A stretch of DNA of 11,941 nucleotides from a virus (taxonomy: Duplodnaviria; Heunggongvirae; Uroviricota; Caudoviricetes): IMG/VR virus record IMGVR_UViG_2648501400_000008, one strand, 5' to 3'. The first letter of the stretch is position 1; every line of letters starts with the position of its first letter. The translations under genes and the position numbers were made by a program. Of this stretch, positions 8,203-11,826 are shown piece by piece. The notes below the pieces were generated by a model. It worked only from the letters and a program-made list of their open reading frames with translations. It did not search any database and was not told where the DNA came from.

Positions 8203-9144
8203 ATGAGCACTAAATTAACCGGCTATGTATGGGATGGTTGCGCTGCGTCAGGCATGAAATTATCCAGCGTGGCAATTATGGCCCGCCTGGCTGATTTCAG
8301 TAATGACGAAGGTGTGTGCTGGCCATCAATTGAAACCATTGCCCGCCAGATTGGCGCGGGGATGAGTACCGTCAGAACGGCTATCGCACGGCTGGAAGCA
8401 GAAGGCTGGTTAACGCGTAAGGCGCGTCGCCAGGGTAACCGCAATGCGTCGAATGTTTATCAGCTTAACGTTGCGAAGCTTCAGGCAGCGGCATTTTCTC
8501 AACTGTCAGATTCTGACCCGTCAAAATCTGACGCATCAAAATCTGACCCGTCAAAATTTGATGCGTCGAAATCTGGCAAAAAAGCGGGTTTTCACCCGTC
8601 AGAATCTGGCGGGGATCCGTCAGTAAAATCAAAACATGATCCGTCAGATAAAAAACCTTCTCGTCCGGACGCTTCGCAACCGGACACGCAGACGGCTGAA
8701 CAGGATTTTTTAACTCGCCATCCTGATGCGGTTGTATTCAGCCCTAAAAAGCGCCAGTGGGGAACGCAGGATGATTTGACCTGCGCACAGTGGCTCTGGA
8801 AAAAAATCATTGCCCTGTACGAGCAGGCCGCCGAATGTGACGGCGAGGTGGTTCGTCCCAAAGAACCGAACTGGACAGCCTGGGCAAACGAAATTCGCCT
8901 GATGTGTGTGCAGGATGGTCGTACTCACAAACAAATCTGCGAGATGTACAGCCGCGTCAGCCGCGATCCGTTCTGGTGCCGTAACGTGCTCAGCCCGTCG
9001 AAGCTGCGGGAAAAATGGGATGAGCTTTCCCTGCGCTTATCGCCGTCCATCAGCACATACACAGAAAAACGCGAAGACCCGTATTTCAAATCCAGTTACG
9101 ACAACGTGGACTACAGCCAGATCCCGGCAGGATTCAGGGGGTGA
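8203..9144 (+). CDS. Lambda O-like replication initiator (313 aa)
   Basis: N-terminal winged-HTH-like segment (…CWPSIETIARQIGAGMSTVRTAIARLEAEGWL…), a repeat-rich linker, and a C-terminus (…QWGTQDDLTCAQWLWKKI…NWTAWANEIRLMCVQDGRTHKQICEMYSRVSRDPFWCRNVLSPSKLREKWDEL) that matches the lambda O C-terminal domain as I recall it. GAGG ribosome-binding site 6 nt upstream. Confidence 0.85.
   Translation: MSTKLTGYVWDGCAASGMKLSSVAIMARLADFSNDEGVCWPSIETIARQIGAGMSTVRTAIARLEAEGWLTRKARRQGNRNASNVYQLNVAKLQAAAFSQLSDSDPSKSDASKSDPSKFDASKSGKKAGFHPSESGGDPSVKSKHDPSDKKPSRPDASQPDTQTAEQDFLTRHPDAVVFSPKKRQWGTQDDLTCAQWLWKKIIALYEQAAECDGEVVRPKEPNWTAWANEIRLMCVQDGRTHKQICEMYSRVSRDPFWCRNVLSPSKLREKWDELSLRLSPSISTYTEKREDPYFKSSYDNVDYSQIPAGFRG
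8503..8580. repeat. Tandem about-15-bp direct repeats (candidate replication-origin iterons) inside the O-like gene
   Basis: Consecutive units TCAAAATCTGACGCA / TCAAAATCTGACCCG / TCAAAATTTGATGCG / TCGAAATCTGGCAAA plus a diverged flanking copy, followed by more degenerate copies and an A/T-rich stretch (8620-8657). They encode the SKSD-repeat linker. Confidence 0.5.
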
Positions 9145-9146
9145 GC

Positions 9147-9635
9147 ATGAGTCTTTTGAATGACGTTCAGAAATTCATTGAAGCCCATCCGGGGTGTACT
9201 TCCGGAGACATTGCGGATGCTTTTGCAGGTTACTCACGGCAGCGCGTTCTGCAGTCTGCAAGCAAGTTACGTCAGAGTGGGCGTGTGGCTCACCGTTGTG
9301 AAGGAGATACACGCAGACATTTCCCGCGCCTGACTGAGAGAGCGCAGGAGCCGGAACCACAACCAGTTCGTGAAACCAGACCTGTGCGCAATTTCTATGT
9401 CGGCACTAACGATCCCCGGGTGATTTTGTGCCTGACCCGCCAGGCGGAAGAACTGGAGTCCAGGGGCTTATACCGTCGTGCTGCAACGGTGTGGATGGCG
9501 GCATTCCGTGAAAGCCACTCCCAGCCAGAACGAAACAATTTTCTGGCGCGTCGTGAACGGTGTTTACGGAAAAGCAGTAAGCGGGCTGCATCAGGTGAAG
9601 AGTGGTATCTCTCAGGGAATTACGTGGGGGCTTAA
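9147..9635 (+). CDS. PerC-family-like putative transcriptional regulator (162 aa from ATG 9147)
   Basis: AGGGGG ribosome-binding site 6 nt upstream of the ATG at 9147 (the ORF track uses the GTG at 9141). The C-terminal AEELESRGLYRRAATVWMAAF resembles the PerC/Pch motif as I recall it; the N-terminal part looks like a winged helix. Confidence 0.55.
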   Translation: MSLLNDVQKFIEAHPGCTSGDIADAFAGYSRQRVLQSASKLRQSGRVAHRCEGDTRRHFPRLTERAQEPEPQPVRETRPVRNFYVGTNDPRVILCLTRQAEELESRGLYRRAATVWMAAFRESHSQPERNNFLARRERCLRKSSKRAASGEEWYLSGNYVGA

Positions 9636-10288
9636 TGAGTAATAAATATTGCCAGGCGCTGGTGGAACTGCGGAACAAACCAGCCCATGAACTGAAGGAA
9701 GTGGGCGATCAGTGGCGCACGCCGGACAACATTTTCTGGGGAATTAACACCCTGTTTGGCCCGTTTGTTCTGGATCTGTTTACTGACGGTGATAACGCCA
9801 AATGTGCTGCGTATTACACGGCGGAAGACAACGCGCTGGCGCATGACTGGTCAGAACGTCTTGCGGAGCTTAAAGGTGCTGCCTTTGGTAATCCCCCATA
9901 CAGCCGCGCCAGTCAGCATGAGGGGCAATACATCACCGGCATGCGTTACATCATGAAGCATGCCAGTGCCATGCGTGATAAGGGCGGGCGCTATGTTTTC
10001 CTGATCAAAGCTGCCACCAGCGAAGTTTGGTGGCCGGAAGATGCAGACCATATTGCTTTTATTCGCGGGCGTATTGGTTTTGAACTGCCTGCCTGGTTTA
10101 TCCCGAAGGATGAGAAGCAGGTGCCGACAGGAGCGTTCTTCGCTGGTGCTATTGCTGTTTTCGACAAGACCTGGAAGGGACCGGCAATCAGCTACATCGG
10201 GCGCGATGAACTTGAGGCATGTGGTGAGGCGTTTCTGGCGCAGGTTCGCCAGCAGGCGGAAAAACTGGTCAGGGAGATGGCGGCATGA
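9635..10288 (+). CDS. Phage Dam-like DNA N6-adenine methyltransferase (217 aa from ATG 9635)
   Basis: Catalytic (D/N)PPY motif present as AFGNPPYSR; the start ATG overlaps the upstream stop (TAATG at 9633-9637); the stop overlaps the next start (ATGA). Confidence 0.85.
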   Translation: MSNKYCQALVELRNKPAHELKEVGDQWRTPDNIFWGINTLFGPFVLDLFTDGDNAKCAAYYTAEDNALAHDWSERLAELKGAAFGNPPYSRASQHEGQYITGMRYIMKHASAMRDKGGRYVFLIKAATSEVWWPEDADHIAFIRGRIGFELPAWFIPKDEKQVPTGAFFAGAIAVFDKTWKGPAISYIGRDELEACGEAFLAQVRQQAEKLVREMAA

Positions 10289-10611
10289 CGACGTTAACTC
10301 AATGCCAGCAGCAGGTGCTGGATATGCTGATTTCTTATCAGAAAGAACGTGGCTTCCCGCCAACCAATCAGGAGGTGGCAACCATGCTGGGATACCGTTC
10401 AGTGAATGCAGCGGTGGAACATCTTCGCGCACTGGAGAAAAAAGGCGTCATCACGATAAAGCGTGGCGTGGCCCGGGGTATCACTCTTCATACCGCGGTG
10501 AAGGACGACGACAGCGAGGCGGTCGGGATTATCCGCTCACTGCTTGCCGGTGAGGAAAACGCCAGGCTGCGTGCAACCCACTGGTTACATGAGAGAGGCC
10601 TGAAAGTATGA
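10285..10611 (+). CDS. LexA N-terminal DNA-binding-domain-like protein lacking the S24 peptidase domain (108 aa)
   Basis: LTQCQQQVLDMLISYQKERGFPPTNQEVATMLGYRSVNAAVEHLRALEKKGVITIKRGVARGITL closely parallels the LexA winged-HTH domain (…[55 protein letters not shown]…, recalled); there is no Ser/Lys protease domain. Coupled to flanking genes by ATGA overlaps. Confidence 0.8.
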   Translation: MTTLTQCQQQVLDMLISYQKERGFPPTNQEVATMLGYRSVNAAVEHLRALEKKGVITIKRGVARGITLHTAVKDDDSEAVGIIRSLLAGEENARLRATHWLHERGLKV

Positions 10612-10997
10612 AGCTGATCCTGCCTTTCCCGCCCAGCGTGAACACGTACTGGCGACACCCCAACAAAGGGGCATTTGCTGGTAAGAGCCTGATAAGCGCG
10701 GCGGGGCGAAAATTTCAGAGCGCGGCGTGCGCAGCAATAGTTGAGCAGTTACGTCGTCTGCCAAAACCAACGTCGGCACCTGCTTCAGTGGAGATCGTGT
10801 TGTTTCCTCCGGATAACCGGATCCGCGATCTGGACAACTATAACAAGGCGCTGTTTGACGCCCTGACCCACGCGGGTGTGTGGGAAGACGACAGTCAGGT
10901 GAAAAGAATGCTGGTGGAGTGGGGACCGGTTATCCCGGAAGGGAAGGTCGAGATCACTATCAGTAAGTACGAGAAAACGGCGGGTGCAGCCGCCTGA
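10608..10997 (+). CDS. rusA: RusA Holliday-junction resolvase (129 aa)
   Basis: LPFPPSVNTYWRH … RDLDNYNKALFDALTHAGVWEDDSQV … EITI matches the RusA signature including the catalytic Asp cluster; this is the typical position in the lambdoid nin region. Confidence 0.9.
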   Translation: MKLILPFPPSVNTYWRHPNKGAFAGKSLISAAGRKFQSAACAAIVEQLRRLPKPTSAPASVEIVLFPPDNRIRDLDNYNKALFDALTHAGVWEDDSQVKRMLVEWGPVIPEGKVEITISKYEKTAGAAA

Positions 10998-11016: not shown

Positions 11017-11826
11017 ATGAATAATCTGATGGTCATTGATGGTATTGAAGTTCGTCGTGATGCTTATGGGCGTTACAGCCTGAACGATCTGCATCGCGCA
11101 GCAGTAGCATCTGGTGCAAATGCCAGAACCAAGGAGCCAGGAAAGTTTCTTTCCAGCCAACAAACTGTTGAACTTGTTCATGAATTGACCAACACCCAGA
11201 ATTTGGGTGTTGACCCGGTGAGTGTGATTCATGGGGGAAATGAACGGGGAACTTATGTCTGCAAGGAACTGGTGTATGCCTATGCAATGTGGATCAGCCC
11301 GCCATTCCATCTGAAGGTGATCCGTACTTTCGACATGGTAACCAGCGCACCGGAAAAATTATCCGGGCAGGCTGCTGACAAGATGCAGGCTGGTGTGATT
11401 CTGCTGGACTTTATGCGTCGGGAATTAAACCTGTCTAACTCATCTGTGCTTGGGGCTTGTCAGAAACTCCAGGAGGCTGTTGGCTTACCGAATCTGGCTC
11501 CGCGCTATGCAATTGATGCTCCTGCCGATGCACCCGATGGCTCAAGTCGCCCTACGCTGTCACTGAGTGCACTGCTGAAGCAGTATGGTATCCGCCTGAC
11601 GGCTAATCAGGCATATCACCAGATGGTGAAGCTGGGGATCGTCGAGCAGCGCGAACGATACAGCCGTACCGCGATTAACAACATCAAAAAATTCTGGTCG
11701 CTGACAGCGAAAGGCTGCATGTTCGGCAAGAACATCACCAGTCCCGCAAATCCGCGCGAGACGCAGCCGCATTTCTTCGAATCCCGATTCCCTGAGCTGT
11801 TAAAGCTGCTCGATACCGTTCATTGA
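11017..11826 (+). CDS. KilA-N domain protein (Roi/antirepressor-like, 269 aa from ATG 11017)
   Basis: AAGGAG ribosome-binding site at 11002-11007, 9 nt before the ATG at 11017. The N-terminus (MNNLMVIDGIEVRRDAYGRYSLNDLHRA … GTYVCKELVYAYAMWISPPFHLKV) is KilA-N-like. Confidence 0.75.
   Translation: MNNLMVIDGIEVRRDAYGRYSLNDLHRAAVASGANARTKEPGKFLSSQQTVELVHELTNTQNLGVDPVSVIHGGNERGTYVCKELVYAYAMWISPPFHLKVIRTFDMVTSAPEKLSGQAADKMQAGVILLDFMRRELNLSNSSVLGACQKLQEAVGLPNLAPRYAIDAPADAPDGSSRPTLSLSALLKQYGIRLTANQAYHQMVKLGIVEQRERYSRTAINNIKKFWSLTAKGCMFGKNITSPANPRETQPHFFESRFPELLKLLDTVH

Follow-up and report, generated by a model that had tools for sequence, protein, structure and literature searches.

A prophage protein with a LexA-type winged helix and no protease domain in the early operon of a lambdoid prophage

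The 11,941-nucleotide (nt) stretch of caudoviral DNA analysed here (IMG/VR record IMGVR_UViG_2648501400_000008; "the window" below means this whole stretch) comes from a lambdoid prophage of the SfV/mEp460 type, whose nin region includes, at positions 9635–10997, genes for a phage-type DNA methyltransferase (Dam), a 108-amino-acid (aa) protein and a RusA-family resolvase. The subject of this study is the middle gene, whose product contains the DNA-binding domain (DBD) of LexA and no autoprotease domain. A first-pass annotation of the sequence had proposed that the three genes form a translationally coupled module, and that the middle protein could act as an uncleavable repressor on SOS boxes or phage sites, or as an anti-LexA factor, and so link prophage induction, methylation and recombination control.

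The three genes and the LexA-like protein

The three genes are indeed joined by overlaps of the form ATGA, in which the stop codon of one gene overlaps the start codon of the next. These overlaps, the genes and the predicted parts of the middle protein are as follows (helices and strands are those of the AlphaFold2 (AF2) model, and pLDDT is its predicted local distance difference test score):

9635–10288, + strand: phage-type DNA N6-adenine methyltransferase (Dam), 217 aa, ATG at 9635 and TGA at 10286–10288; matched by PF05869, TIGR01712 and PADLOC MTase_II
10285–10288, + strand: ATGA stop/start overlap of Dam and the LexA-DBD gene, read from the sequence
10285–10611, + strand: LexA-DBD-only protein, 108 aa, PHROG 362, ATG at 10285 and TGA at 10609–10611
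10285–10491, + strand: winged helix-turn-helix, residues 1–69; helices 6–22, 28–35 and 40–52, strands 56–58 and 66–68
10402–10440, + strand: recognition helix, residues 40–52; listed contact positions S39, N41, A42, V44 and E45
10504–10593, + strand: predicted C-terminal helical hairpin, residues 74–103 (helices 74–88 and 93–103), pLDDT ~88–90
10608–10611, + strand: ATGA stop/start overlap of the LexA-DBD gene and RusA, read from the sequence
10608–10997, + strand: RusA-family Holliday junction resolvase, 129 aa, ATG at 10608; PF05866 and phrog_34

The similarity of the 108-aa protein to LexA is strong and is confined to the N-terminal part of LexA. The Pfam family LexA_DNA_bind (PF01726) covers residues 1–65 of the 108 (E = 2.9e-19), the E. 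coli LexA structures 1lea and 3jso match it at E ~1e-15 with ~50% identity to LexA residues 2–69, and Foldseek places its winged helix on DNA-bound LexA (3jso) with a root-mean-square deviation of 1.0 Å over 68 residues and 50% identity. A search for Peptidase_S24 (PF00717) gave no match in the 108-aa protein; this search was sensitive enough, because the cI-like protein of the same window does match PF00717. Against the LexA equivalog model TIGR00498 the protein scores 70.8 bits, where the cut-off is 110.95, and it matches model positions 1–91 of 203. The protein is thus a LexA winged helix only and not a LexA, since it has neither the S24 domain nor a conserved Ala-Gly cleavage site and scores below the equivalog cut-off. 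With no S24 domain and a score below the TIGR00498 cut-off, RecA-stimulated self-cleavage is not expected, which agrees with the first-pass annotation. Public records name this protein "SOS-response repressor and protease LexA", "RecA-mediated autopeptidases", "LexA repressor" or "LexA repressor and protease", and such "LexA repressor and protease" annotations are wrong whichever of the functional readings discussed below is correct. A marginal PADLOC match to a CARF-like protein (E = 3.6e-4) was disregarded.

The residues by which LexA touches DNA are Ser39, Asn41, Ala42, Glu44 and Glu45 (PMC3091678). The corresponding positions of the window protein read S, N, A, V and E, so that four of the five are kept and E44 is replaced by Val, and S39, N41 and A42 are nearly invariant across 189 distinct sequences of the family.

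The C-terminal tail of about 40 aa had been called unrelated to LexA, and this holds in part: residues ~70–108 have no match in Pfam and no counterpart in the PDB by Foldseek, but there is a weak alignment between the start of the tail and the hinge and cleavage-site stretch of LexA, and the alignments made by HMMER and BLAST reach residue 90. In these alignments A88-G89 lies opposite the LexA cleavage bond A84-G85. We considered whether this dipeptide is a relic of the cleavage site and rejected the idea; it is VG or AN in relatives that are 86–88% identical, it is gone in distant relatives, and the segment is predicted to be helical. The AF2 model (made from an 18-sequence family alignment; mean pLDDT 83) folds the tail as a helical hairpin, joined to the winged helix by a linker (residues 71–74) that has low confidence. 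An exhaustive HMMER search found relatives down to ~40% identity in which the hydrophobic pattern of the tail (positions 80, 83, 86/87, 97 and 101) is retained, and in these A97 and L101 are invariant. The number of conserved hydrophobic positions on these two short, amphipathic helices points to a probable role of the tail in dimerisation. Some metagenomic proteins of ~160–220 aa (P0132, P0152, P0156 and P0163) have two tandem LexA DNA-binding domains and no protease domain, and these could be single-chain "dimers".

The window gene is a member of an existing and widespread family. The phrog_362 profile matches the protein over its full length (E = 1.1e-59, residues 1–108 against profile positions 1–106 of 106), and the proteins of PHROG 362, called "LexA family protein" at NCBI (SfV orf42, mEp460_046 and those of SfII, SfIV, cdtI and Stx2a/Stx2c phages), are 95–100% identical to it. 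By tblastn the middle protein is present in 63 phage records, among them SfV, SfII, SfIV, cdtI, mEp460, Stx2a, Stx2c, mEp390 (47% identity) and Klebsiella phages. At the DNA level the region is 97–98% identical to vB_EcoM-689R6, 1720a-02, mEp460, SfV and Stx2c phages, and the 1363-base-pair (bp) stretch that holds the three genes has a match in 2673 of the 5426 complete E. coli genomes searched (1661 of the 2673 have at least 80% of it, and a single genome matches it at 100% identity). The PHROG 362 family name "transcriptional repressor" derives from homology alone, and a functional study of the enterobacterial LexA-DBD family did not turn up in our literature searches; a phage-encoded truncated LexA homologue is a kind of protein that is already known, and the PHROG 362 family is functionally unstudied.

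The operon and the gene neighbourhoods of relatives

The chain of overlapping genes is longer than the three genes first described, as the following features of the operon show:

8203–9144, + strand: HTH_36 replication protein, with a GTGA overlap with the next gene at 9141–9144
9141–9635, + strand: PerC/YfdN-family gene (Pfam PerC, E = 7.9e-09; phrog_1324), with a TAATG overlap with Dam at 9633–9637
11017–11826, + strand: KilA-N domain protein (PF04383, E = 6.2e-22), the next gene of the operon, after a 19-bp gap that follows RusA

Pfam identifies cro and a CP76-type cII 5' of this run and an S24-type cI repressor on the opposite strand, and neither + strand promoters nor strong terminators were predicted from cro to the end of the window. 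The further overlaps on the 5' side and the lack of a predicted internal + strand promoter indicate that the trio sits within a single long early operon that runs rightward. The ATGA links are a feature of this longer early-right (nin-region) operon and are no signature of a Dam/LexA-DBD/RusA trio.

Whether the middle gene keeps its neighbours was examined in 274 IMG/VR loci that were retrieved for four members of the family and whose neighbouring genes were classified; these loci are highly redundant, so that the counts given here and below represent lineages and not independent events. The loci fall into three clades:

Clade A (window type), 73 loci with enough upstream DNA: 5', Dam in ~48 and PerC directly in ~19; 3', RusA in all
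Clade B (Klebsiella type), 105 loci with enough upstream DNA: 5', typically DinI and a small open reading frame (ORF); 3', a 67-aa ORF and DUF968, with RusA in ~5
Clade C (mEp390 type), 77 loci with enough upstream DNA: 5', no Dam; 3', RusA in all

In the first seven divergent loci examined RusA was the next gene, a pattern that later loci weakened, and DUF968 is found 3' of the LexA-DBD gene in all clades. The LexA-DBD gene ends in an ATGA overlap in 272 of 275 loci regardless of what gene comes next, so stop/start coupling to the 3' gene is a general habit of the operon. Conversely, in Salmonella phage 118970_sal3, vB_EcoS-716R3 and YeP3 a methylase gene (confirmed by hmmsearch) directly overlaps a RusA gene, 60–81% identical at the protein level to that of the window, with no LexA-DBD gene between them; nor does a LexA-DBD gene precede the canonical RusA of the phage 82/DLP12 type. 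The overlap that is kept with any neighbour and the methylase-RusA loci that have no LexA-DBD gene indicate that this gene is an optional insert at a fixed position. An obligate Dam/LexA-DBD/RusA module is rejected by the absence of Dam 5' of the gene in about a quarter of the clade A loci and in all 77 clade C loci, the presence of RusA in only ~5 of the 105 clade B loci and the methylase-RusA junctions without the gene. The link of the LexA-DBD gene to Dam and RusA is positional and not functional, and the proposed connection with methylation and recombination control is not supported.

The two flanking proteins are themselves clearly assigned. Dam matches PF05869 with E = 9.7e-46 (156 bits against a cut-off of 28.1) and TIGR01712 with 255.6 bits (cut-off 97). 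RusA matches PF05866 with E = 6.1e-15 (56.4 bits against a gathering threshold of 22.8), belongs to a divergent subfamily that is ~40% identical to phage 82 Rus by tblastn, and contains the motifs DLDN and EDD, which we take to be its acidic catalytic motifs. RefSeq phage records misname the PF05869 methyltransferase "phosphoadenosine phosphosulfate reductase", and the same misnomer is carried by phrog_33262, whose C-terminal part Dam matches. Elsewhere in the window (337–1932, - strand) lies a 531-aa anti-phage dCTP deaminase, a defence gene within the prophage region (466 bits on NCBIfam NF041025, whose cut-off is 400; PADLOC dCTPase, E = 2e-164).

SOS boxes in the window and in related phages

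The window contains a canonical SOS box, where ~0.14–0.18 exact matches to CTGT-N8-ACAG are expected:

6722–6741, no strand assigned: canonical SOS box TACTGTTTTTACATACAGTA, a full match to TACTGT-N8-ACAGTA, inside the cI-like gene (6258–6950, - strand); singled out in the first-pass annotation and a candidate target of the 108-aa protein

The arms of this box are kept in ~70% identical cI alleles of E. coli, Shigella, Salmonella and Klebsiella phages, and the residues encoded between the arms vary; conservation of the arms while the amino acids between them change indicates that the box is a real operator. The part of the S24-type repressor gene that holds it encodes the linker, and on the - strand the layout TTTAC(C/A)-N17-TACTGT is kept there, a geometry that equals that of the clade B SOS promoters described below. 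An SOS-controlled transcript that starts inside cI and encodes a repressor fragment made of the C-terminal domain only is conceivable from this arrangement, and a literature search found no paper on it.

The related phage mEp460 has five CTGT-N8-ACAG sites where 0.68 are expected, and when the spacing of CTGT-Nx-ACAG was varied from 0 to 20 there was enrichment at spacing 8 only. Two of these boxes precede a dinI-like gene, one is in cI and one is at the start of a late-region methylase gene; the pair is in tandem at mEp460 23255–23302, ahead of the dinI-like gene that adjoins int, and the last is at 41021–41040. The dinI-like and late-methylase boxes recur in an Stx2c phage. The idea that SOS boxes go together with the LexA-DBD gene was considered and rejected, since the related Klebsiella phage Kp4873-4 has such boxes and no LexA-DBD gene; this comparison was made with four full genomes.

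The clade B loci place the LexA-DBD gene itself in an SOS setting. In 96 of the 105 a canonical SOS box lies 440–600 bp 5' of the gene, just past a terminator and overlapping a promoter -35/-10 pair at its -10 (such as TTGAAC-N17-TACTGT, or TTGCAA-N17-AATAAT with the box after it); among these promoters there are several versions that differ visibly, in 58 distinct 70-nt contexts. The unit usually begins with a gene for a DinI homologue (PF06183, E = 8e-26), so that by their promoter sequences these relatives of the window protein are placed under predicted LexA control alongside DinI, a modulator of RecA*. The full order of the Klebsiella-type unit is terminator, promoter and SOS box, DinI, ~80-aa ORF, LexA-DBD protein, 67-aa ORF and DUF968-HNH (loci L021, 10395–11400; L006, 3500–4610; L009, 3468–4360; and L031–L144). 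In this unit the ~80-aa ORF has the motif GYAxxRCxDG, the LexA-DBD protein carries an N-terminal extension of 25–60 aa, and neither of the two small ORFs has a match in Pfam.

Possible functions and comparison with known systems

We are a good deal surer that the 108-aa protein is a sequence-specific DNA-binding regulator than we are of any particular set of targets. An SOS-related DNA-binding role is plausible from the sequence comparisons, given the four of five contact residues kept, the missing protease and the SOS-box/dinI operons of clade B; these operons also give circumstantial support to the original idea of an uncleavable LexA mimic. The specific reading that we tentatively prefer, at somewhat less than an even chance, is that the protein is a non-cleavable, LexA-derived, probably dimeric regulator that is made during the SOS response or prophage induction and acts on SOS-like CTGT operators as a surrogate for LexA. 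Under this reading the LexA-type winged helix would be joined by a short, flexible linker to the two-helix hairpin, which would most likely make the protein a dimer. In prophages of the window type the gene would be expressed from the rightward early operon once the S24-type cI repressor is inactivated, and the Klebsiella-type relatives would be expressed from their own LexA-repressed promoter, usually with DinI; in both settings the protein would appear as host LexA is cleaved. Its putative targets would be CTGT-containing, SOS-box-like operators on host DNA, phage DNA or both, where a RecA*-resistant surrogate might re-impose or reshape repression during lytic growth; the direction of regulation, the target and the dimer are all inferred.

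A more far-reaching form of this proposal, possible but on balance doubtful, is that, once host LexA has been cleaved, the RecA-proof dimer takes its place at SOS boxes of the host chromosome, of its own phage (those at the dinI-like promoter, inside cI and at the late methylase) and of co-resident prophages that are induced through LexA-repressed antirepressors, as those of the Gifsy type are (PMC3121763), and so shuts down SOS functions and blocks competitors during lytic growth; together with DinI it would form an SOS-inducible negative-feedback pair in Klebsiella-type prophages. If SOS-box binding is true, the cell's SOS response to DNA damage would be rewritten by a prophage gene that is very widespread, and if the protein is a RecA-proof surrogate, SOS output would depend on the strain, as about half of the complete E. 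coli genomes match the three-gene stretch and Stx2 phages carry the gene. Such an activity would bear on antibiotic-triggered induction of Shiga-toxin phages, on mutagenesis and on competition among prophages.

Several observations weigh against a LexA surrogate. None of the 189 distinct family sequences has Glu at position 44. At position 45 Glu is found in clade A, in most of clade C and in half of clade B2, but clade B1 (the main Klebsiella clade) has Leu there and part of clade C has Ala; given the lost E44 and the non-uniform position 45, specificity may differ between sub-clades and need not be for the SOS box. No SOS box was found within 1.5 kb 5' of the gene in the clade A and clade C loci. 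The SOS boxes in Kp4873-4 are good ones, and their presence in a phage without the gene means that host LexA alone can explain the phage boxes. The redundancy of the IMG/VR loci counts against the reading as well. Finally, GIL01 gp6, a 66-aa LexA-DBD-only protein of a Bacillus thuringiensis tectivirus, is a precedent for a DNA-binding transcriptional regulator of this kind (Fornelos et al. 2018, PMC6182141), but it does not bind the LexA box; its site is the palindrome GaCACAnnTGTGaC, it activates a late promoter from a site that overlaps the -35 element, and K38 of its recognition helix is critical (PMC6182141). No candidate site for such activation was identified for the window protein.

The behaviour of GIL01 gp6 leads to the strongest alternative, a phage transcription factor whose winged helix now recognises, after drift, an operator private to the phage, where it activates or represses phage genes such as late, lysis or accessory genes and leaves the host SOS regulon untouched. 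We consider this, too, a possibility rather than a probability. The family-wide replacement of E44 and the difference at position 45 between sub-clades are what diversifying specificity predicts, and the gene is carried by phages and prophages only. However, the base-contact residues of the window clade are identical to those of LexA at four of five positions, no non-SOS palindrome is enriched (the spacing series peaked only at the SOS value), Q antiterminators already serve late control in these phages, and the overlapping genes leave almost no intergenic room for a nearby private operator. If it is nevertheless correct, this would be a second, independent reuse of LexA's DNA-binding domain as a regulator by a phage, after GIL01 gp6.

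It is quite unlikely that the protein is instead a DNA-binding accessory of the downstream RusA or DUF968-HNH protein, for example one that targets or modulates junction resolution. RusA follows in 150 of 150 clade A and C loci, the next start overlaps the stop of the gene almost everywhere, and DUF968 lies 3' in every clade, but lambdoid nin regions usually have a fixed gene order, RusA is missing from ~95% of the clade B loci although the gene is there, and RusA proteins close to that of the window, as well as those of the phage 82/DLP12 type, do without it. Very improbable is a decoy that sequesters LexA or RecA* by protein contact and not through DNA, or the anti-LexA role suggested earlier: the weak alignment of the tail start with the LexA hinge and cleavage-site stretch, the A88-G89 dipeptide and the co-expression with DinI in clade B could be read in its favour, but the C-terminal domain that carries LexA dimerisation (PMC3091678) is absent, the A-G pair is unconserved even in close relatives, the tail is predicted to be helical and not strand-loop, and conservation within the protein is highest at the DNA-contact residues. 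That the gene is a functionless, decaying remnant of a captured lexA is hardly credible, since, in spite of many truncated or frameshifted database copies, several prophage lineages have full-length relatives of constant size (~105–135 aa) that share the tail pattern even at ~40% identity, with key residues invariant and signs of purifying selection.

The LexA-surrogate reading can be set beside three known proteins. Host LexA of E. coli (1lea, 1jhh and 3jso) has a winged helix ~50% identical to that of the window protein and shares S39, N41, A42 and E45 with it, whereas the window protein lacks the S24 autoprotease/dimerisation domain, Ser119 and Lys156, and a conserved Ala-Gly, and has the hairpin in place of the C-terminal domain. 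The N-terminal fragment left by LexA cleavage (residues 1–84) also consists of the DNA-binding domain and the hinge; it binds DNA weakly and is rapidly degraded. Unlike this fragment the phage protein has an additional conserved hairpin, which could restore dimerisation and stability.

Among characterised proteins, GIL01 gp6 is the nearest relative. The two are alike in being phage-encoded LexA winged helices that have no protease/dimerisation domain and are expressed as early genes after loss of LexA, and a comparison of profiles shows them to be homologous through the LexA domain that they share (hhalign E = 3.8e-10 at a probability of 96.7%, with 33% identity over 63 columns). BLASTP gave no alignment between gp6 and the window protein at E ≤ 100, which is consistent with independent origins from Bacillus and enterobacterial LexA. 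The window protein differs from the shorter gp6 in having the C-terminal hairpin, in keeping the LexA contact residues and in its location in a lambdoid nin region with a Q antiterminator.

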